In this document: positions 11,461-55,432 of the stretch, piece by piece
Numbering within the stretch: position 1 is the stretch's first letter
Layout of the letters: each line of letters starts with the position of its first letter
From: Gammaproteobacteria bacterium
Lineage (GTDB): Bacteria; Actinomycetota; Acidimicrobiia; Spongiisociales; UBA4744
Length of the DNA: 64,000 nucleotides
Reading direction: 5' to 3'
Assembly: GCA_011682695.1 (NCBI GenBank)
Contig: JAACED010000005.1
Location: 2,488-66,487, forward strand
Made by a program: the position numbers and the translations under genes
The notes under the pieces: generated by a model
What the model was told of the DNA's origin: nothing
Seen by the model: the letters and a program-made list of their open reading frames with translations, nothing else
The model's database searches: none

Positions 11461-13064
11461 TGAGAACCACGACCGGGGTCGTGTTCCCTCTGGGCATCGC
11501 CGCCGCCGTGTTGCTCGTCGGTGCATGTGCACCGGAGGCATCCGAACCTGTCCGGTCGTCGCCCGAGACCCGGGCTCCGACGGCTTCGACCACCACAACC
11601 TCCACGCCTCCAGCCATGACGGCCGTCACAGTGACCTCGACGACCTCGACGACGATCACTACGCCGGAGACGACACGGCGTCCCACCATCCGCATCGCGA
11701 TGGTTGGTGACGTCATGCTCGGCCGTGGTCTCTCGCGCATCGTTCGGAACGACCCGCAGAGCATCTTCGAAGATGTGCGATTCGTCCTGTCGGACGTGGA
11801 TATCGCCGGGGCGAACATGGAGTCGCCGTTGACGAATCGGCCTCACATCGCACTCAACCCGTACGCGCTCGAGGCGAGGCCGGAGACGGCCGGGCTGCTC
11901 GCCGCGGCGGGTTTCGATGTCCTGTCGGTCGCGAACAACCATGCGGGTGACGCAGGGCGGGCATCGGTGATCGATAGCGTCGAAGCGATCAATGACGCCG
12001 GGATGCAGGCGGTCGGTGGCGGGGTGAACCTGAGCGAAGCCGTGCGGCCGGTCATCGTGGAGGTGCGAGGGCTTCGTGTGGGGTTCCTCGCATTCGATGC
12101 GACGAGGGCGGGTACTCCGGCGAGTGAGAATCGGGCGGGCATCGCACCGTGGGACGACGAGACGGTTCGTGCCGCAGTGACAGGACTGCGTCCCTGGGTC
12201 GATCTGCTCGTAGTGGCCGTGCACGGCGGGGTCGAGTATCGCACGTGGACCGACCCGCACATGGCAGCGCTTGCAGAGGAACTCAGCGGCTGGGGCGTCG
12301 ACGTGGTGTGGGGGAGTGGGCCACATGTCGTCCAACCCGTCTTCCTGATCGATGGTGCACGACCGACCGTGGTGGCGACGAGTCTCGGCAACTTCCTCTT
12401 CGACCAGGGTGATTCCGCGACAAAGGTGGGGGCGATCCTCGAGGTCCTTGCCGACGCCGACGGTGTCGTCGCGTACCGGGTAGCGACGGTCCAGCACCGT
12501 GACCGGCGGGTGCATTTCGACCAGTGGGACGACCCAGACGGTGACGCGGCGATGCTCGGCACCGAATGGTGGAGCCTCGGCCGCGGTTTCGAACCCCTCG
12601 AGCCCGACGAGCCCGGGGATCTCGAGCGGTTCCGGTGGGGTGATGTGGTCGACGCGACTCGAGGCGACGTGGACGGTGACGGGAGGGATGAGATCGTCGT
12701 GGCGTTCCGCCGGCCTTATCAGGAGAACCCGGTGAACGCACTGTTCCCCGATAGGCCGTGGGCCGACGTGTTGGGACGCAGCGCCCACATCGGTGTGTTT
12801 CGAGCCTCGGATCTCGAGCCCGAATGGATCGCGGGAACCCTGTTCCGACCCGTCAGACGGGTCGTGGCATGCGACGGAAGCCTTGCCGTCGGATACGGCT
12901 CGGACGAGACGGACGGTGTCGTGGCGTCTGGAGCGTGGCGGTGGCGTGGGTTCAGTTTTCTCATCGCTCCGACCTTGGATCGCGATGCCGCGCTCGGGTG
13001 CGCGGATATCGATGGTGATGGTCGAACGGACCCGATCCTGTTCAGTAGACCGGGAACTCCATGA
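11460..13064 (+). CDS. CapA/PGA_cap family metallophosphatase-like lipoprotein with Thr/Ser-rich linker and C-terminal FG-GAP/VCBS-like Asp-rich repeats
   Basis: Start ATG overlaps the previous stop (TGATG). Lipobox LLVGACAP. CapA core (IAMVGDVMLGR...ANNHAGD...VAVHGGVEY). C-terminal DVDGDGRDE / DIDGDGRTD repeats. Confidence 0.75.
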   Translation: MRTTTGVVFPLGIAAAVLLVGACAPEASEPVRSSPETRAPTASTTTTSTPPAMTAVTVTSTTSTTITTPETTRRPTIRIAMVGDVMLGRGLSRIVRNDPQSIFEDVRFVLSDVDIAGANMESPLTNRPHIALNPYALEARPETAGLLAAAGFDVLSVANNHAGDAGRASVIDSVEAINDAGMQAVGGGVNLSEAVRPVIVEVRGLRVGFLAFDATRAGTPASENRAGIAPWDDETVRAAVTGLRPWVDLLVVAVHGGVEYRTWTDPHMAALAEELSGWGVDVVWGSGPHVVQPVFLIDGARPTVVATSLGNFLFDQGDSATKVGAILEVLADADGVVAYRVATVQHRDRRVHFDQWDDPDGDAAMLGTEWWSLGRGFEPLEPDEPGDLERFRWGDVVDATRGDVDGDGRDEIVVAFRRPYQENPVNALFPDRPWADVLGRSAHIGVFRASDLEPEWIAGTLFRPVRRVVACDGSLAVGYGSDETDGVVASGAWRWRGFSFLIAPTLDRDAALGCADIDGDGRTDPILFSRPGTP

Positions 13065-15287
13065 CCGGTCGTGTCGTTCTACAATCCCGAGGGGGGAAGA
13101 TCGTGCGAACGTTCGCGGCAATCGTCGTCATTGCTCTTTTCGTGGTGGCGTGTACGAGTGGCTCTGAGGCTCCGACGACCTCTGCGGCCGTGTCGACATC
13201 GACATCGACATCGACGTCCGCGCATCCGAGCACGACCACGTCCGCGCATCCGAGCACCACCCCGTCCACGGCCCCCGTCGCCGACGCGACCCTCACCGTT
13301 CAGCAGCAGCCTCGGTCGCTGAGCCCGTTCGCCGGGTACACGCTGGTTCCGATGGACGAGGCAGGCACCTATCCGGGCCCTGCCTGGCCGACATCGCTCG
13401 ATGGTGTCGTGATCTCGCCGGAAGCCGAGTACCTCGTCGGGCGGCCCGAGGCTGCACGGGCACTCACCGATCACGGTTTCGTCGTCGTACCGGGCTACGC
13501 GGCGCTCTTCCAGGATGTCTACGCGCAGGCGCCCTACGACAACCACGCGATTTTCGTGACCACCGACGCCGGCTACCACGTTCTTCATCTTGCCTTCAGC
13601 AAGGTGCTGCGTGACACCGAGCAGAACTCCCTCCTCCCAGTGCTCGAAGATCTCGTCACCCGCTCGGTCGCCGCCGCCCGAGGCCAGGCGGCAGCACTCG
13701 CAGGCACGGGCCAGGCGGACCAGGCGTCGCGAGTCGCGCAGCTCTTCGAAGCGGCAGCGGTGCTGCTCGGTCTCGACGTCGGGCCGGTCGGCCCGCTTGC
13801 AGACCAGGAGGTCGGCCTTGCCACCGAAGCGGCGCAGATGACCACGTCGCCGATCACCGGCTTCGCCGCATGCAATCGAACGCAGTCGCCACGCGGGTGT
13901 GTCGACTACAGCCTGTTCAAACCCAGAGGTCATTACACGCGCAACGAGGATCTCGAGCGGTATTTCCGGGCGATGTCGCTTGTCGGGCAGGAAGGCGCAT
14001 CATTCGTCGCCGGGATGGACGGCGACACTCCGGTCGTCGACGAACCGTCGATGCAGTTCGCCCTCCTTGTCGTCCGGGCGATGCAGGCGGACCCGGTTAT
14101 CGAGCAGGACTGGCGGCTCCTCTACGAACCTACTGCGTTCATGGTCGGCATGGCCGACGACTACACGCCGTTCGAGCTCGCAGCAGTCGCCGTAGCGGTC
14201 GCCGGAGACCGGTGGTCGACCGACGATTTCGCCGACACCGGCCTCCTGCAGACCGTCGGGGGGAAACTGCTCGCGACCCGTGCGGTTGGAATCAATCCGG
14301 AGGCGGCGTCGGTCCGCATCATGGGAGCACGGTTCGTCATCGATTCGTAGATTCTCGACCAGCTCGCCTGGCCGAACGTCGGAAAGGAGCCGCCGGTGAA
14401 ACGACGTGTGTACGTGTCGCCGCTCGACGTCGCCGCGACATTCGATTCCAATCTGGCGCTCGGCATCCAACGACAGGCGGGCGAGGACCGGTACCTGCAC
14501 TATGAGGACCAGATGGCCGCCATGCGCGAACTCGTCTCTGTACGTGCGGAAGACGACTGGGCCGCGACCGTATATGACGCGTGGTTGTCTGCCCTCCAGC
14601 CGGTGTGGCGTGAGCACGGTGACGCATTCCCGCCGTTCATGCGCAACGACGCCTGGACCGCGAAGGACCTCCAGACGGGCCTCGGGTCGTACACGGAGCT
14701 GAAGCACGACACGATCCTCTACGCGAAACAGGAATTCGCCGCGGAGGGCGGCGGGGACTGGACCGAGCTACATCCGCGACACTGGGTCGAGCCGGATCCG
14801 GTCGCATTCGAGAGGATGTCGCAGGTCGCGGCGCTGCTCCAGAGCGGCCTGGCCGAGCGGGGCCATCAGCACCGAGGACAACGACTGGCTCGGTGGGGTC
14901 GGGTCCGCCATGGAAGGCCTCTGGTATGCCTCGTCGGACGCCGACCCCAAGACCGGGGCGGTCGCGTCGGGGGATTCTCGCGACGCCCTCATTGCGGACA
15001 TCGGACGGGCGTCTTTCGCGTATCTGGAGATCGGCACCGGGGTGATCGACCAGATCCTCGTCCTCGTCCCCGACGACGCCGGACGGTTCCAGGTGGCAAT
15101 CGGCGGCGTCTACTCGTACTACGAGTTCTGGCGCCCCGAAGAGCAGGGCCGCCTCACCGACGAGGAGTGGTGGAAGCTCCTCGACGACGGTCGTGCACCG
15201 GACCGGTCGGCGCCGATGATCTTGCCCGATCCGGATGACGGTGAGCGTCACCGTCCCGCCTGGCAGGCCGCATTCCTGGTGCCCTGA
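13061..15287 (+). pseudogene. Large secreted lipoprotein gene (about 740 codons) interrupted by an in-frame TAG (14348..14350) and a +/-1 frameshift near 14855..14865
   Basis: Three track ORFs (13061..14350, 14396..15238, 14910..15287) read as one continuous protein if the TAG is read through and one base is adjusted in a CGGGGCC run. Lipobox VVACTSG with a Ser/Thr linker. Family is uncertain (possibly DUF3160-like). Confidence 0.5.
13192..13262 (+). repeat. Coding tandem repeats in the lipoprotein linker: (ACATCG)n followed by a 24-nt direct duplication (GTCCGCGCATCCGAGCACNACC x2)
   Basis: Read directly. Encodes STSTSTS and SAHPSTTT/SAHPSTTP. Confidence 0.6.
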
Positions 15288-15616
15288 CCGGTATCCGCTC
15301 GAGAATGCCGGACGCGCAACGGCGTCGTGTGCCGTATGGGGCCGATCCATAGGAATGGTTTCACAAGCTCGCGAGAACCGGGTACCGTGATGGTCGCGGC
15401 CGGCCGTCCGGTTGGCTACCCTCCATCCGTGCCCGCTATACCCGTTGCCCCAGCGGGGGGTACGGTGAGCCTCCCAGCCCCGGACGGCTGCCGCATGAGC
15501 CGTTCTGGAGGAGTTCTGGCGAGCTACGCGACGCTGCTCACCGCCGACGATCAGATCGAGACGGCGCTACGGTTCTTGTGTCGAGGCAAGGATCTATTGC
15601 ATCGGAAGAGAGTCTG

Positions 15617-16279
15617 ATGACGCCCGATTTCACCCTGATCGATCAAGGGGGCAACCCGTGGACACTCTCGGAGCATCTCGACAGCGCCGTCGTGCTGCTC
15701 TTCCTGCGCGGTGACTGGTGACCGTACTGCAACGGCCAGCTGGTCAGTCTGGCATCACGATACGACGACCTACTCGCCGCCGGGGGTCGGATTGCCGTGA
15801 TCAGCGTCGACACCCCACAACAGCATGCTGCACTGATCGAGAAACTCGGGCTGCGCTTCCCGATGTTGTCCGATCCCGACCGCAGTCGAGCCATCAGGCC
15901 GTACGGGGTTGCCGACCACAAGGATGCCCGCAATATCGCCCGGCCCGCCTTCGTCATCGTCACTCCGCAAGGAGATGAGGTCGAGAGGCGGTTGTCGGGC
16001 GACTTCGCCGATCGTCCTACCGAGGACGAACTGATCGCCGCTGTCGGCAAGCTTGGGATGGCCCCGGTCGAAGCGGAGCCGATCGCACTCGGTCCGGCGT
16101 CTCCCGGCCCGAATGCGATGCCGGTCGCTGCCATGGAGCCGTACTATCGGGGAGCGAAGTTCGCCGTCACCGCAATGCGGTTGCGACATCCCGAATTGGA
16201 GGAGGAGGCGAAGCGCTACATCGACGAACTCGACCGTTACATCGAAGCCGTGCGCGACCTCAAGAGGTCCAACGGCTGA
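15617..16279 (+). CDS. Candidate selenoprotein: peroxiredoxin/redoxin (AhpC-TSA, thioredoxin-fold) family with in-frame TGA (15719..15721) at the first position of a W-U-P-Y-C redox motif
   Basis: Contiguous reading from ATG 15617 gives MTPDFTLIDQGGNPWTLSEHLDSAVVLLFLRGDW-TGA-PYCNGQLVSL...FPMLSDPDRSRAIRPYGV... This runs in frame into the track ORF 15797..16279. The Prx-like motifs (FTLxD, VVLxF, FPxLSD...YGV) flank the TGA. An RBS-like GGAAGAGAG lies upstream. Confidence 0.6.
15735..15753 (+). promoter_or_regulatory. Candidate bacterial SECIS-like hairpin (GCCAG-CUGGUCAGU-CUGGC) 13 nt downstream of the UGA
   Basis: 5-bp GC-rich stem with a 9-nt loop containing GGU. Position is compatible with bSECIS spacing. 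Not folded computationally. Confidence 0.3.
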
Positions 16280-16287
16280 CAGGGGGG

Positions 16288-18237
16288 ATGATGGACAAGA
16301 CAGCCTGGAGGAAGCTCGACATCGGTGACCTGGCCGTGGGCCGGGTTACAACGGTGATCGTCGAAGGCCGTGCTCTGGCCGTGAGCCGCACCGAGTCCGG
16401 TTGGGGAGTACTCGACAACCGTTGTCCGCATCAAGGGGGTCCACTCGGCGACGGAGAGATCGAAGGTCCGTACCTGCTCTGTCCCTGGCACGGCTACGAG
16501 TACGACCCTGTCACCGGCGAGCCGCCGGCAGGGTTCAGCGATGTCGCCACCTGCTATCGCCTCGAGGAACGCGACGGCGGCCTGTACGTCGAGCTTCCCG
16601 TCCCTTCCGCGCAGCCGACCCTGATGGACCAGATGGTCGATGTCATGACCGGGTGGGGCGTGGACACGGTGTTCGGAATGGTCGGTCATTCCAATCTCGG
16701 GCTTGCCGACGCTCTGCGAAGGGCCGAACAAGACGAGCGCCTGCGGTACATTGGGATCCGGCATGAGGGCGCGGCTGCCTTCGCGGCTTCTGCCTACGGC
16801 AAACTGACCGGCCGCCCCGCAGCCTGCTTTTCGATCGCCGGGCCGGGAGCAACGAACCTGTTGACGGGCCTATGGGACGCAAAGGTCGACCGTGCACCGA
16901 TTCTGGCACTCACCGGACAGGTGCAGACCCAGGTGCTGGGCCCGGGAGCCTTCCAGGAGGTCCCGCTCACCGAAGCGTTCGCGGCCGTCGCCAACTTCAG
17001 TCAGACGGTGCTCGTACCCGACAACGCGACGGAGTTGATGGCGCTCGCCCTCAAACATGCGCTGGTCGAGCGCGGTGTCGCCCATCTCGTGTTCCCAGAT
17101 GAAGTGCAAAGCCTGCCGGGCCTGAGCGAACCGCCGGAGCGACTGCGAACCGGACGGGTCGCGTTCGACGGGATCGCGCCGCCGAAAGAGGAACTGTCGA
17201 GGGCGGTCGACCTCCTCGAAGGCGCTCAGCGGCCGGTGATCATCGCCGGAAACGGGGCACGCCAGGCTCGCCGGCTGGTGATCGAGCTTGCGGAACACAT
17301 CGATGTACCCGTGATCACGACGTTTCGTGCCAAGGGTCTCATTGGTGATGACCACCCATTGGGGGGCGGTGTGGTGGGGCGCTCGGGCACACCCATCGCT
17401 TCTGCGCTGATGGCGCGAGCGGATGCCCTGCTGGTCCTCGGTGCATCGTTCTCGAACCATTCGGGTATCGCGACATGGGTGCCGACCATCCAAGTCGATT
17501 TCGATCGCATGACCCTGGGCAAGTTCCATCCCGTCGACGTCCCGATCTGGGGTGAGATCGGGCGGACGCTCGAGCTCCTGAAGGGGGCGCTGTCACCGGT
17601 TGATCGTCCCGAGCAACGCGCCACGGTCGAACTCAAGCGGACCAGGTGGCGCGAGGAGACCGTGCGAAGAGCCGCCATGACTGACGAGTCCGGCCGTATG
17701 CATCCGGCCCGCGTATTCACCACCCTGTCCGGGCTGGTGCCTACGGACGCGGTGATCTCTGTCGACGTCGGCAACAACACCTACGCGTTCGGTCACTACT
17801 TCGAGGCGAAAGGAGGCCAGGATGTTCTCATGTCCGGCTACCTGGGGTCGATCGGCTTCGGTTTCCCGGGTGCAATGGGGGCGTGGGCCGCAACACGTGG
17901 CACCAACCGCAAAGTGATCTCGGTCTCTGGAGACGGAGGCTTCGGCCAGTACCTCGCCGAGTTCACCACCGCCGTGAGGTACGGGATGCCGATTACCCAC
18001 GTGCTGCTGAACAACGACGAGCTGGGCAAGATCAGCAGGGAGCAGATCGGTGCGGTGCGGCCGGTGTGGCAGACGTCGCTGGTCAATCCCGATTTCGCCG
18101 AGTACGCGCGCCTATGTGGTGGGCGGGGATTCAGGGCCGACGATCCTGCCGACCTGGAAGCCGTGTTCTCGGAGGCACTCGCCGTCTCCAATGGACCATC
18201 ACTGGTCGAGGTCACCGTCTCTGCGCTCGACGTCTGA
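16288..18237 (+). CDS. Rieske [2Fe-2S] domain fused to a thiamine-diphosphate-dependent enzyme (acetolactate-synthase/pyruvate-oxidase-like)
   Basis: N-terminus CPHQGGPL...CPWHGYEYD (Rieske CxH...CxxH). The remainder has ThDP-enzyme Pyr, central and PP domains (GDGGF...NN). Confidence 0.8.
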   Translation: MMDKTAWRKLDIGDLAVGRVTTVIVEGRALAVSRTESGWGVLDNRCPHQGGPLGDGEIEGPYLLCPWHGYEYDPVTGEPPAGFSDVATCYRLEERDGGLYVELPVPSAQPTLMDQMVDVMTGWGVDTVFGMVGHSNLGLADALRRAEQDERLRYIGIRHEGAAAFAASAYGKLTGRPAACFSIAGPGATNLLTGLWDAKVDRAPILALTGQVQTQVLGPGAFQEVPLTEAFAAVANFSQTVLVPDNATELMALALKHALVERGVAHLVFPDEVQSLPGLSEPPERLRTGRVAFDGIAPPKEELSRAVDLLEGAQRPVIIAGNGARQARRLVIELAEHIDVPVITTFRAKGLIGDDHPLGGGVVGRSGTPIASALMARADALLVLGASFSNHSGIATWVPTIQVDFDRMTLGKFHPVDVPIWGEIGRTLELLKGALSPVDRPEQRATVELKRTRWREETVRRAAMTDESGRMHPARVFTTLSGLVPTDAVISVDVGNNTYAFGHYFEAKGGQDVLMSGYLGSIGFGFPGAMGAWAATRGTNRKVISVSGDGGFGQYLAEFTTAVRYGMPITHVLLNNDELGKISREQIGAVRPVWQTSLVNPDFAEYARLCGGRGFRADDPADLEAVFSEALAVSNGPSLVEVTVSALDV

Positions 18238-46464: not shown

Positions 46465-48177
46465 TCAGGATGGAACGGCTCTCATCAGGATGTCTCTCAC
46501 TTCAGCGGTCGAGGACGCCTGCAGGCAGCGGTCGGCAACTGTCCTGGCGGCATCCGTGGACCATGACCGGATACGGTCTTTCACCACACTGATCGACGGT
46601 GGGTTCATGGACCATTCGTCGAGGCCAAGCCCCAGCAGTATGGGAACCGCCACGGGATCTCCGGCCATTTCTCCACACAGTCCAACCCATTTCCCGTGCG
46701 CGTGGGCAGCTTCGATGACCATCTGGATCAGGCGCAGAACTGCTGGATGGAGGGGGTCGGCGATTGTCGCGACCGCTGCATTGGTTCGATCGACCGCCAA
46801 CGTGTATTGCGTGAGATCATTGGTGCCGATCGAGAAGAAATCGAGCCGGGAGGCAAGTGCACCAGCGATCAGTGCCGCCGAGGGCACTTCGATCATGATC
46901 CCGATTTCGAAGGAAGCAGCCCGTTCTATGCCGCGGCTGTCGAGCGCGGCCGCTGCTGCGCCGACTGCCGCTCGTGCGGCCTCGACTTCGGCCAAGGTGG
47001 CCACCATCGGGAACATGATCTTCAGATTGCCATGGACCCCGGCACGCAGCAGGGCTCGGAGTTGCTTCTGGAAGAGATCGCGTTCCGCCAAGGTCAGGCG
47101 GATTCCCCGCTTGCCGAGAAACGGGTTCAGCTCGTTCTCGAGATTGATGCCGGGCACCTGCTTGTCGCCGCCCACGTCGAGAGTTCTCACTACCACCGGG
47201 CGGTCGCCGAACAGTTCAAGAATCGACCGATAGGCCTCGTACTGCTCATCTTCCGTGGGGAGAGTTCCCCGATCGATGAACAGGAACTCGGTCCGAAGCA
47301 ATCCCACACCCTCGGCTCCCGACCGATCGGCGCGCTCGGCATCTGCGACGCTGCCGATGTTCGCCACCACTTCCTGGCGATGTCCGTCCACGGTGACCGC
47401 CGGCTCTGAGGCGCGTGCGGCAGCAACCGTGAGGAGTCGGGCCTGTCGTTCATACTGCTCACGCAGAGCGGCGAGCTGTTCTGTGTCGGGGTCGATGTAG
47501 AGAAGACCGGCATCACCATCCACCGCGACTGTTGTCCCGGTGGCAACGTCGAGGTTCGTGATTCCGACGATCGCCGGGATTCCCATCGACCGAGCCAGGA
47601 TCGCCGCATGGGAGGTGGCGCTGCCTTCTTTGGTGCAGAAAGCCAACGCCATTCCCTCAGGAAGTGACATCGTATCCGACGGTGTCAGATCGTCGGCGAT
47701 GACGACCGACGGCACGGTGATTTCCGACAATCCTTCGGAACCCAGTCCCATCAGTTCGCGCACGAGTTGTTGTCCGATGTCTCGCACGTCGATTGCTCGC
47801 TCGGCGAAGTAGTCGTCTCCGATGGATGCGAATTCATCAGCAAGTGCGGACGTGACCGCGACCACGGCAGCCTCGGCCGTGGTCGCCTCGGCGGCGATCA
47901 GGTCGGCGGCTTTCGCGGAGAGTGCCGGGTCGGCCAAGAACATTCGATGCACCTCGAATATCTCGGCGGCAGCATCTCCGGCGTGGTCGGCGGCGATCGC
48001 AACGAGCTCACTGAGGCGACGATCGACGGCTGCGATTGCGGCCAGCAGGCGCTCCTGCTCTCCAGGGATGTCATCGACGGGACCCTTGGGAATCTCGGGC
48101 GTCTCGGGTCGATAGACGAACGCTGGTCCGATGGCGATACCGCCGGCCGCCGGGATGCCGTGCATGATGCGGTTCAT
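46465..48177 (-). CDS. ptsI: Phosphoenolpyruvate-protein phosphotransferase (PTS Enzyme I)
   Basis: 570 aa; GGRTSHAAILARSMGIPAIVG-like and PEP-utilising TIM-barrel motifs. Confidence 0.9.
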   Translation of the reverse strand: MNRIMHGIPAAGGIAIGPAFVYRPETPEIPKGPVDDIPGEQERLLAAIAAVDRRLSELVAIAADHAGDAAAEIFEVHRMFLADPALSAKAADLIAAEATTAEAAVVAVTSALADEFASIGDDYFAERAIDVRDIGQQLVRELMGLGSEGLSEITVPSVVIADDLTPSDTMSLPEGMALAFCTKEGSATSHAAILARSMGIPAIVGITNLDVATGTTVAVDGDAGLLYIDPDTEQLAALREQYERQARLLTVAAARASEPAVTVDGHRQEVVANIGSVADAERADRSGAEGVGLLRTEFLFIDRGTLPTEDEQYEAYRSILELFGDRPVVVRTLDVGGDKQVPGINLENELNPFLGKRGIRLTLAERDLFQKQLRALLRAGVHGNLKIMFPMVATLAEVEAARAAVGAAAAALDSRGIERAASFEIGIMIEVPSAALIAGALASRLDFFSIGTNDLTQYTLAVDRTNAAVATIADPLHPAVLRLIQMVIEAAHAHGKWVGLCGEMAGDPVAVPILLGLGLDEWSMNPPSISVVKDRIRSWSTDAARTVADRCLQASSTAEVRDILMRAVPS

Positions 48178-54232: not shown

Positions 54233-55432
54233 ATGAATCGACACGGGAGAATCCTGATGGTCCACGGCCACTGTGACCGAGCGTTCGATACGGTTCGTGA
54301 GGCATTCGCCGCCAATTTCGCGGAGCGCGCGGAGACCGGAGCGGCGCTCAGCGTCTACGCAGACGGACGCAAGGTCGTGGATCTGTGGGGTGGGGATGCC
54401 GGCCCCGGACGACCGTGGGAGCAGGACACCATCACCCCGGTGTGGTCGGCGACCAAAGGGATCACGGCGCTGGTCGTGCAGCGTCTCGTCGATACCGGGC
54501 GACTCGGACTCGACACACCCGTGGCGCACTGGTGGCCGGAGTTCGCCCAAGGCGGCAAGGAGAAGATCACGGTCGCCGATGTGCTCACCCACGGCGCCCG
54601 TCTGCCCTATCCGCCGGGCTACGCCGAGATCGTCACGGCTGACGGGCCCGAGGGGTGGGACCGTGTCGAGGACCTCACTCGGCTACTCGAGCAGGCCGAG
54701 CCCATCTGGCCGGAGGGTACCCATGGCTACCACTCCGTGACCTTCGGGCTCCTTCTCAACGGTGTCGTGCGCCGGGCGACCGGCAGCAGCATCGGAGCGT
54801 TGCTCCGCGACGAGATCGCCGGGCCGCTCGGGATCGAGGCCGCCTGGATCGGACAGCCCGCAGAGGTCGAGGACAGGGTGGCACATCTCGAACTCACCAT
54901 CCCTCCGCCGCCCACCGATGATCCCGAGATCCTGGCGTTCATGGCCCACGCCATGAGCTCGGAGGGATCCATCGGCCGTTCGCTCTTCGTCGGACCGTCG
55001 GGGGCGATGAACTTCACCGCGGTAGGGAACGATCCCCGGTTCCGGGCCGTGGAGCACCCTGCGGCCAACGGTGTCGTCGATGCACGATCCCTGGCCCGGG
55101 TGTACGCCGCACTCGCGGGCGGCGGGGAACTCGACGGTGTTCGCGTAGTGTCCGAGGAGTCCATCGCCCGGCACAGTGCCGAGCAATGGCACGGCAACGA
55201 TGCCACGCTGATGGCCGAGAAGCGATACGCCCTCGGCTACATGCTGCCAGGTACCCCCACCGAGCGATACGGCCCTGCCGACAAGGCATTCGGGCACCCG
55301 GGGATGGGGGGTTCGCTCGGTTTCGCCGACCCCGGGATCGGATTCGGATATGTCACCCGGCACATGGTGTTCGAGATCACAGTGGACCCGCGTGTCGACG
55401 CGGTGGCCGACGCCGTGTATGCGAGCCTCTGA
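54233..55432 (+). CDS. Serine hydrolase, beta-lactamase/esterase family (class C-like)
   Basis: SATKG (S-x-x-K) nucleophile motif. 399 aa. Confidence 0.8.
   Translation: MNRHGRILMVHGHCDRAFDTVREAFAANFAERAETGAALSVYADGRKVVDLWGGDAGPGRPWEQDTITPVWSATKGITALVVQRLVDTGRLGLDTPVAHWWPEFAQGGKEKITVADVLTHGARLPYPPGYAEIVTADGPEGWDRVEDLTRLLEQAEPIWPEGTHGYHSVTFGLLLNGVVRRATGSSIGALLRDEIAGPLGIEAAWIGQPAEVEDRVAHLELTIPPPPTDDPEILAFMAHAMSSEGSIGRSLFVGPSGAMNFTAVGNDPRFRAVEHPAANGVVDARSLARVYAALAGGGELDGVRVVSEESIARHSAEQWHGNDATLMAEKRYALGYMLPGTPTERYGPADKAFGHPGMGGSLGFADPGIGFGYVTRHMVFEITVDPRVDAVADAVYASL

Follow-up and report, generated by a model that had tools for sequence, protein, structure and literature searches.

Reading frame of the gene and position of the TGA codon

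Does a TGA codon within a thiol-redox motif end a gene, or is it read as an amino acid? This question is raised by a locus in a 64,000-nucleotide stretch of contig JAACED010000005.1 from an Acidimicrobiia bacterium (assembly GCA_011682695.1; this whole stretch is hereafter called the window, and coordinates refer to it unless another locus is named), where an open reading frame (ORF) for a peroxiredoxin (Prx)-like protein is interrupted by a TGA. Our analysis indicates, with a probability of about 0.9, that this TGA is a real selenocysteine (Sec)-type recoding site in a 220-residue Prx-like U-x-x-C redox protein, encoded by a single gene at 15617-16279. A preliminary description made from the sequence alone had proposed Sec as well, and we arrived at the same reading because Sec is paired with Cys at this position, 68 other species have the TGA as well, the N-terminal piece is under purifying selection, and there is a hairpin resembling a Sec insertion sequence (SECIS) with synonymous constraint specific to the Sec forms. 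The features of the gene are as follows.

15617-16279, plus strand: full-length selenoprotein coding sequence by conceptual translation, 220 residues with U as residue 35, stop TGA at 16277-16279
15719-15721, plus strand: in-frame UGA, predicted Sec codon (U35), first position of the U-P-Y-C redox motif
15728-15730, plus strand: TGC codon for Cys38, second redox residue of U-x-x-C, aligned with the peroxidatic Cys of PrxQ/BCP
15604-15612, plus strand: purine-rich tract GGAAGAGAG, putative Shine-Dalgarno site read from the sequence, 4 nt 5' of the ATG

Translation confirmed that the frame from ATG 15617 to the stop at 16277-16279 is interrupted only by the TGA at codon 35, in the context ...VVLLFLRGDW-[TGA]-PYCNGQLVSLA.... 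The called ORF (15797-16279, GTG start, 160 aa) is a C-terminal fragment of the 220-residue frame; as the preliminary description had pointed out, it is devoid of the catalytic motif, and the strands and the helix with which the fold begins are missing from it as well.

A reassignment of TGA in the host was considered and ruled out. TGA is the commonest ordinary stop in the window and terminates 33 of the 48 confidently coding long ORFs, the selenoprotein gene included; therefore, it is not reassigned. Two further in-frame TGAs with coding-like G+C content at third codon positions on either side were seen at 47407 (plus strand) and 42542 (minus strand). Neither of them lies in a redox motif, and each probably marks the normal end of one gene, with another gene following in the same frame.

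Conservation of the TGA and its pairing with cysteine

A search of 5.8 billion proteins gave 120 homologs among the matches listed, of which 112 were C-terminal fragments covering 62-80% of the query (139-182 aa, plus one 297-aa fusion). The alignment showed that these fragments start at arbitrary, differing points after the CxxC position. Among the eight full-length homologs, seven (37-43% identity) carry the sequence GDWCPYCNGQL. The eighth, P0004 (locus L165, 582-1259; JGI Ga0633713_0320760), reads GDWWPYC as a protein, but the codon of the second 'W' is TGA in the DNA. We therefore concluded that this gene had been called under genetic code 4, and rejected P0004 as a Trp variant. In-frame Sec codons can thus steer metagenomic gene callers to the wrong code, as exemplified by P0004, which lies on a short contig.

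When one genome per species (GTDB) was scanned, 80 related loci were returned. TGA was found at the identical alignment position in 68 of these species-representative loci, most of them from Acidimicrobiia and the others from Euzebyales, Nitriliruptorales, Thermomicrobiales/Chloroflexota, and Dormibacterota metagenome-assembled genomes (MAGs). Their motifs vary between W-U-P-Y-C, W-U-A/S/G-Y-C, and F-U-T/S-Y-C. The 11 most distant loci (Chloroflexia, Limnocylindrales, a Planctomycetota MAG, a Falkowbacteria MAG, and myxobacteria) have TGC or TGT at this position, and one locus is cut off by a contig end. Complete Acidimicrobiia chromosomes that contain the gene include OZ244034.1, OZ244213.1, OZ242000.1, and OZ242375.1. 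The TGA codon was also present in further metagenome contigs and in both assemblies of the window's contig, which probably derive from the same reads. Judged by its coordinates, the 113.7-kb ENA contig SONG20-1_SAMN10739805_METAG-scaffold_15 (L001) would stop at about position 55,200 of the window, which was therefore probably taken from another assembly of this organism.

The TGA was aligned with the first Cys of CPYC, CSYC, or CPFC in the full-length Cys-form proteins and in the 11 genome loci. The alignment with Cys homologs for which the preliminary description had called thus bore out its placing of the TGA at the expected first Cys of a W-C-x-x-C motif. In an ungapped alignment of 68 distinct Sec-form sequences (A3), which was also the basis of the hairpin pairing counts given below, the T10 and G11 columns of the Cys38 codon were invariant.

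We then asked how the sequence on the two sides of the TGA has evolved. Matches by tblastn in dozens of genomes covered the query from residues 1-4 to approximately residue 216. Among the Sec-form loci, pairwise differences at codon positions 1/2/3 were 0.38/0.34/0.57 in the 30 codons 5' of the TGA and 0.34/0.30/0.46 in the 30 codons 3' of it, i.e. with the same periodicity, as against 0.70/0.72/0.70, without periodicity, in the DNA 5' of the start. The 28 codons upstream of the TGA were free of stops in 68 of 69 loci. The first possible start mostly lies 34-36 codons before the TGA (34 in the window), and the upstream piece has the conserved residues DFTL.D..G..W.LS.HLD in frame with the downstream part. 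These comparisons indicate that the 30 codons upstream of the TGA evolve as coding sequence under purifying selection, and the possibility that the N-terminal region is non-coding in relatives was not borne out.

A bSECIS-like hairpin downstream of the TGA

Bacterial SECIS (bSECIS) elements have been modeled as an upper stem of 4-16 bp with a loop of 3-9 nt that has a G in its first two positions, at 16-37 nt from the UGA (PMC13188914; PMC10778597). The window contains the following candidate, identified by folding and comparative evidence.

15735-15753, plus strand: bSECIS-like hairpin H2, GCCAGCU-[GGUC]-AG(U)CUGGC

H2 has a 7-bp stem with one bulged base, its apical loop GGUC occupies 15742-15745, and its distance from the UGA is 20 nt, all of which lie within the published constraints. 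It resembles the bSECIS of Escherichia coli fdhF in being an intra-ORF hairpin directly after the UGA, in having a bulged base in the upper stem, and in the apical loop GGUC, which is located at nt 22-25 in fdhF (as read from the genome) and at nt 24-27 here. Unlike in fdhF, the bulge of H2 is on the 3' side and the stem sequence is unrelated; furthermore, other clades of the selenoprotein family use a different hairpin with the loop AGUU.

H2 was paired in 88% of the A3 cells, in comparison with 7-50% when the partners were slid. The pair 18:34 was CG in 56 sequences, AU in three, GU in one, and UG in one, which represents a CG-to-AU compensation, and A18 would disrupt the alternative hairpin described below. 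The hairpin with the loop AGUU, H1, has 6 bp and occurs in the F-U-T/S-Y-C-H and Thermomicrobiales clades.

Nt 14-29 after the TGA: hairpin H1, in loci L038, L046, L048, L049, L053-L057, L059, L060, and L073

As a control, we compared 77 distinct Sec forms with 36 Cys-form genes from metagenomes. A near-complete H2 or a complete H1 was present in 61 of the Sec forms and in none of the Cys forms, and a complete H2 in 46 and none, respectively. The local minimum free energy was -10.5 kcal/mol in the Sec forms and -7.2 kcal/mol in the Cys forms (Mann-Whitney p = 6.6e-9). The Gln codon of the stem was CAG in all 77 Sec forms, whereas the Cys forms had CAG in 27 and CAA in 8 cases. Third-codon-position entropy in the window's clade was 0.00-0.34 bits at columns 21-30, as compared with about 1.7 bits just upstream (Arg/Gly codons) and 1.7-1.9 bits just downstream (columns 36-42); in the Cys forms it was 0.75-1.5 bits at columns 21-27. 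All of these comparative data, obtained with statistics that ignore phylogeny, speak for selection on the RNA that is confined to the Sec forms.

When the window and seven loci were scanned with Rfam, neither a SECIS nor a tRNA-Sec nor any other family of relevance was detected. Since bSECIS elements are poorly represented in Rfam, this negative result says little.

Domain, fold, and redox motif of the protein

The predicted protein consists of two parts.

15617-16051, plus strand: thioredoxin/peroxiredoxin-fold domain, about residues 1-145
16124-16273, plus strand: C-terminal two-helix hairpin with the motif PYYRGAKFA, about residues 170-219 (approximate coordinates, mapped from P0004 via the alignment)

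With Cys written at codon 35, the Pfam search matched AhpC-TSA (PF00578) to residues 2-119 in one stretch across the TGA (E = 6.6e-26, 91 bits versus a cut-off of 26). In the AlphaFold2 model of the orthologue P0004 (pLDDT 95.8), the motif is at the start of helix 36-47, and the C-terminal helices comprise residues 170-190 and 196-223. Comparison with structures of the Protein Data Bank (PDB) showed PrxQ/AhpE/BCP and ResA as the nearest folds. The C-terminal hairpin matched no Pfam family at E ≤ 1 and was covered by no PDB match; Y176, G179, and R190 in the C-terminal region are invariant in both Sec and Cys forms.

The relationship to PrxQ/BCP and AhpE (PDB 2cx3, 3hjp, 5epf, 5id2) is limited by several differences. 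In the HMMER alignment with 2cx3, the Prx signature P-x-x-x-T/S-x-x-C reads R31-G-D-W-U35-P-Y-C38, so that the signature Pro is replaced by Arg31 and the Ser/Thr by Sec. The C-terminal helical hairpin is not found in their structures, and the scores were far under the NCBIfam equivalog cut-offs (PrxQ 34.5 versus 260, PRK09437 33.6 versus 140, peroxi_PrxU 26.6 versus 270). On the other hand, R109 was aligned with the catalytic Arg conserved in PrxQ/BCP, AhpE, and PrxU (within AKRAVFIV of 2cx3), being invariant in the nine closest family members (A2) but not across the wider alignment A1, and C38 was aligned with the peroxidatic Cys (alignments to 2cx3 and 3c71). Of the preliminary assignment to a peroxiredoxin/redoxin-fold gene, the Prx fold and the AhpC-TSA domain thus stand, but the protein is not a canonical peroxiredoxin, as the Pro and Thr/Ser of the signature are replaced.

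ResA/TlpA proteins (PDB 3c71, 1st9, 1jfu) share the thioredoxin fold with a Prx-like insertion and have a similar motif: U35 was aligned with the first Cys of the ResA sequence GTW-C-PH-C (HMMER, 3c71), which corresponds to GDW-U-PY-C here. The score with the NCBIfam ResA model was 27.6 versus a cut-off of 170. ResA/TlpA proteins are membrane-anchored, extracytoplasmic, and use Cys, whereas the window's protein uses predicted Sec, and its N-terminus (MTPDFTL) already belongs to strand 1; neither a signal nor an anchor sequence was seen on inspection, no dedicated signal-peptide predictor having been run. The protein is therefore probably cytoplasmic. The best NCBIfam model for the N-terminal 90 residues was the SelL-related NF040769, which shares the Prx-like fold and a motif of the CxxC/UxxC/UxxU type; at 38.2 bits versus a cut-off of 120, the protein is not a member.

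Sec machinery and the lineage

The preliminary description had considered Sec machinery to be uncommon in high-GC Actinobacteria-like genomes, a view that published data qualify for this lineage. In Actinomarina, which belongs to the class Acidimicrobiia, selA, selC, and selD have been reported in all 84 complete genomes, and selB as present but divergent, below the profile threshold (2026 preprint, bioRxiv 10.64898/2026.04.03.716425). Sec-using Actinobacteria were also listed by Peng et al. 2016 (PMC5029168). In view of these reports, Sec use in the Acidimicrobiia lineage appears plausible rather than exotic.

Two ARAGORN predictions in the flanks of related loci were suspected to be tRNA-Sec, i.e. 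a 96-nt 'tRNA-???' with anticodon cctc (L053, 17906-18001, plus strand) and an 89-nt tRNA-Asn with anticodon att (L020, 12626-12714, minus strand). Both were rejected as probably spurious, neither having a match to an Rfam tRNA or tRNA-Sec model.

Evidence against Sec decoding and alternative explanations

Several results weigh against decoding of the TGA as Sec. The stability of H2 alone (-8.7 kcal/mol, z = -1.75 versus shuffles) was not significant in the GC-rich background, single-sequence folds of 72 and 121 nt were no better than shuffles (z about 0), and an alternative hairpin with the loop AGCU was nearly isoenergetic with H2. Thus, when the sequence downstream of the TGA was folded as the preliminary description had suggested, the fit to the bSECIS model held but the single-sequence stability did not exceed that of shuffles. 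RNAalifold did not find a single consensus structure for all 68 Sec-form sequences, because the hairpin differs between clades, and the Dormibacterota clade (..NGQLASYA; L061, L065-L068, L070) fitted both H1 and H2 poorly. The differences between Sec and Cys forms, besides being calculated without regard to phylogeny, are in part due to amino-acid differences between the clades. Finally, in the window ARAGORN and Rfam found only tRNA-Met and no tRNA-Sec, tRNA-Sec was not found in the flanks of related loci by the same programs, and tblastn with E. coli SelA, SelB, and SelD gave nothing at E ≤ 1e-3 in the window and approximately 1.2 Mb of flanks. In the window and flanks searched, Sec machinery genes are not linked to the selenoprotein gene.

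This last finding, together with the modest stability of the hairpin, would also be expected if the TGA were read through without Sec, by near-cognate insertion of Trp or Cys or some other recoding, the hairpin serving only as a read-through stimulator. We consider this explanation improbable, since the TGA aligns only with Cys, at the redox-active CxxC position, as in a classic Sec/Cys pair, and since UxxC Prx-like proteins are an established selenoprotein type. Moreover, the hairpin has SelB-type bSECIS geometry and the fdhF loop, Sec machinery has been reported within the class Acidimicrobiia, and it is not evident what 68 species would gain from an inefficient stop at a catalytic residue if the amino acid inserted were just Cys or Trp. 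It is very improbable that expression is confined to the 160-aa ORF, the 34 codons before it being either non-coding or a small ORF of their own. The output of gene callers here and in more than 100 relatives agrees with such an arrangement, but the fragment would be left without the redox motif and the beginning of the fold, the starts called vary arbitrarily among relatives, and the upstream piece is in frame, with coding periodicity and conserved amino acids. We assign a negligible probability to the reading in which the true or ancestral protein is an ordinary CxxC redoxin, and either the gene has become a pseudogene or an error in sequencing or assembly has put TGA in place of TGC/TGT. 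TGA is one base from these codons, the two TGA-bearing assemblies probably share reads, and a neighboring DUF3160 gene looks split, which makes local decay or assembly error conceivable; the same codon would, however, not have recurred independently in 68 species-level genomes and in further metagenome contigs, and purifying selection is seen on both flanks. Since the identical TGA is found in 68 species and both flanks show coding periodicity, the pattern goes well past what chance would give, and we regard the sequencing error, pseudogene, and two-ORF readings as excluded, and Sec insertion as the best reading of the TGA.

Proposed mechanism

We propose that the UGA at 15719-15721 would be decoded as Sec by a SelB-type factor with Sec-tRNA(Sec), recruited by the mRNA hairpin at 15735-15753. 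The product would have a thioredoxin/peroxiredoxin fold, with the U35-P-Y-C38 redox center at the N-terminus of the first long helix, followed by the C-terminal two-helix hairpin. The U35 selenolate may attack an oxidized substrate (a disulfide, sulfenate, or peroxide), after which C38 would resolve the intermediate to an intramolecular selenenylsulfide, and a thiol reductant such as thioredoxin could re-reduce the latter.

Another possibility is that Sec is inserted but the enzyme is a peroxiredoxin, in which the peroxidatic role would fall to C38 and the resolving role to U35. PrxQ, AhpE, and BCP are the closest folds, a Cys-form relative is named 'thioredoxin-dependent peroxiredoxin' in UniRef, and a Prx-like cycle is still conceivable because the Arg (R109) and the peroxidatic-Cys position (C38) of the Prx proteins are kept. 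However, in selenoenzymes Sec is normally at the attacking position, W-[U/C]-P-x-C matches ResA/thioredoxin-type oxidoreductases in which the first Cys attacks, the Prx signature is lost (Pro to Arg31, Thr/Ser to Sec35), and the scores are far under the PrxQ and PrxU cut-offs. A peroxiredoxin cycle therefore seems unlikely, although it deserves consideration, and on the basis of these comparisons the thioredoxin/ResA-like cycle, in which U35 would attack, is favored.

Genomic context

The gene following the selenoprotein gene (16288-18237, plus strand, with a second ATG at 16291) encodes a 649-aa protein in which a Rieske [2Fe-2S] domain (residues 14-78) is fused to a complete thiamine diphosphate (ThDP) enzyme (TPP_enzyme_N/M/C), an unusual fusion. 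The tight linkage of the two genes noted earlier is real, with a gap of 8-11 nt after the selenoprotein stop (9 in the preliminary description), but apart from the window only its two closest relatives (L003 and L004) retain the adjacency; the Rieske-ThDP protein is 86% and 78% identical in them, respectively. As the adjacency is local to three genomes, no functional conclusion can be drawn from it. Clustering of ORFs within about 5 kb at 69 loci did not reveal any conserved neighbor; only antisense shadow ORFs recurred.

On the 5' side, a 96-aa ORF (15327-15617, plus strand), uncalled in the ENA and Logan records, has a stop TGA that overlaps the selenoprotein ATG (TGATG). Further upstream, the ORFs at 13061-14350 (429 aa) and 14910-15287 (125 aa), both on the plus strand and separated by a gap, match DUF3160 (PF11369); they could be the remains of one gene that was frameshifted or has decayed, two pieces that are paralogous, or the result of an error in the assembly. 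The flanks of related loci contained two RNA elements unrelated to the selenoprotein, namely a fluoride riboswitch (L053, 16921-16980, plus strand; Rfam RF01734, 47.8 bits) and a tmRNA (L032, 428-779, minus strand).

Relation to known selenoproteins and significance

Prx-like UxxC selenoproteins have reportedly been recognized since 2005, when they are said to have been described by Zhang, Fomenko & Gladyshev. In a survey of the GOS data, 'Prx-like 1 (pfam00578, UxxC)' comprised 225 Sec sequences and 2,740 Cys homologs (Zhang & Gladyshev 2008, PMC2398784). A review (PMC13188914) counts 'Prx-like thiol:disulfide oxidoreductase, PF00578, UxxC/UxxU' among the prokaryotic selenoproteins predicted with high confidence, and a further study reported it from 28 organisms (Peng et al. 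2016, PMC5029168). For the window's protein, the most fitting description, drawn from its domain and motif, is that of a Prx-like thiol:disulfide oxidoreductase selenoprotein (PF00578, UxxC), a type of which WP_010940744.1 is a reference member. It shares with Prx-like 1 selenoproteins the PF00578 domain, Sec as the first residue of a U-x-x-C motif that replaces the thioredoxin-like CxxC, many Cys homologs, a SECIS within the ORF just after the UGA, and a function assigned by prediction. In contrast with Prx-like 1, the window's subfamily has a conserved C-terminal extension of approximately 95 residues (an ordered linker and the two-helix hairpin) without Pfam or PDB match, and its members come chiefly from MAGs of Acidimicrobiia, Thermomicrobiales, and Dormibacterota. 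The Sec forms are unnamed in the databases, and a Rubrobacteraceae Cys form is called 'hypothetical protein' or 'thioredoxin-dependent peroxiredoxin' (UniRef).

We tentatively raise the possibility, which we hold to be somewhat short of an even chance, that these proteins form a distinct, undescribed selenoprotein subfamily from Acidimicrobiia, Thermomicrobiales, and Dormibacterota of soil, desert, and marine metagenomes, combining the Prx-like U-x-x-C domain with the conserved C-terminal two-helix hairpin (PYYRGAKFA). Such a subfamily would not be caught by the curated selenoprotein models, would nearly always be annotated short, and would use at least two SECIS hairpins (loops GGYC and AGUU), depending on the clade, over the same peptide. 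The gene adds a new member, and possibly a new subfamily, to a kind of selenoprotein that is well known, and as such it would not surprise a specialist. As the UxxC Prx-like type is already recognized, general knowledge of selenoproteins is unchanged.

The significance of the locus lies in a genuine stop-codon recoding that standard gene calling mishandles: 112 of the 120 homologs listed are C-terminal fragments in which the catalytic motif is missing, and for another one the caller used genetic code 4. The corrected annotation would restore a complete redox enzyme. The existence of Sec and Cys forms of one protein provides a natural set that could be used to study how a SECIS hairpin is accommodated by an unchanging peptide sequence and what favors Sec at this position. 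The presence of the gene suggests that these lineages of Acidimicrobiia, Chloroflexota, and Dormibacterota probably use selenium, and if the proteins do constitute an undescribed subfamily, its spread would indicate that Sec decoding is common in several phyla that have been little studied.

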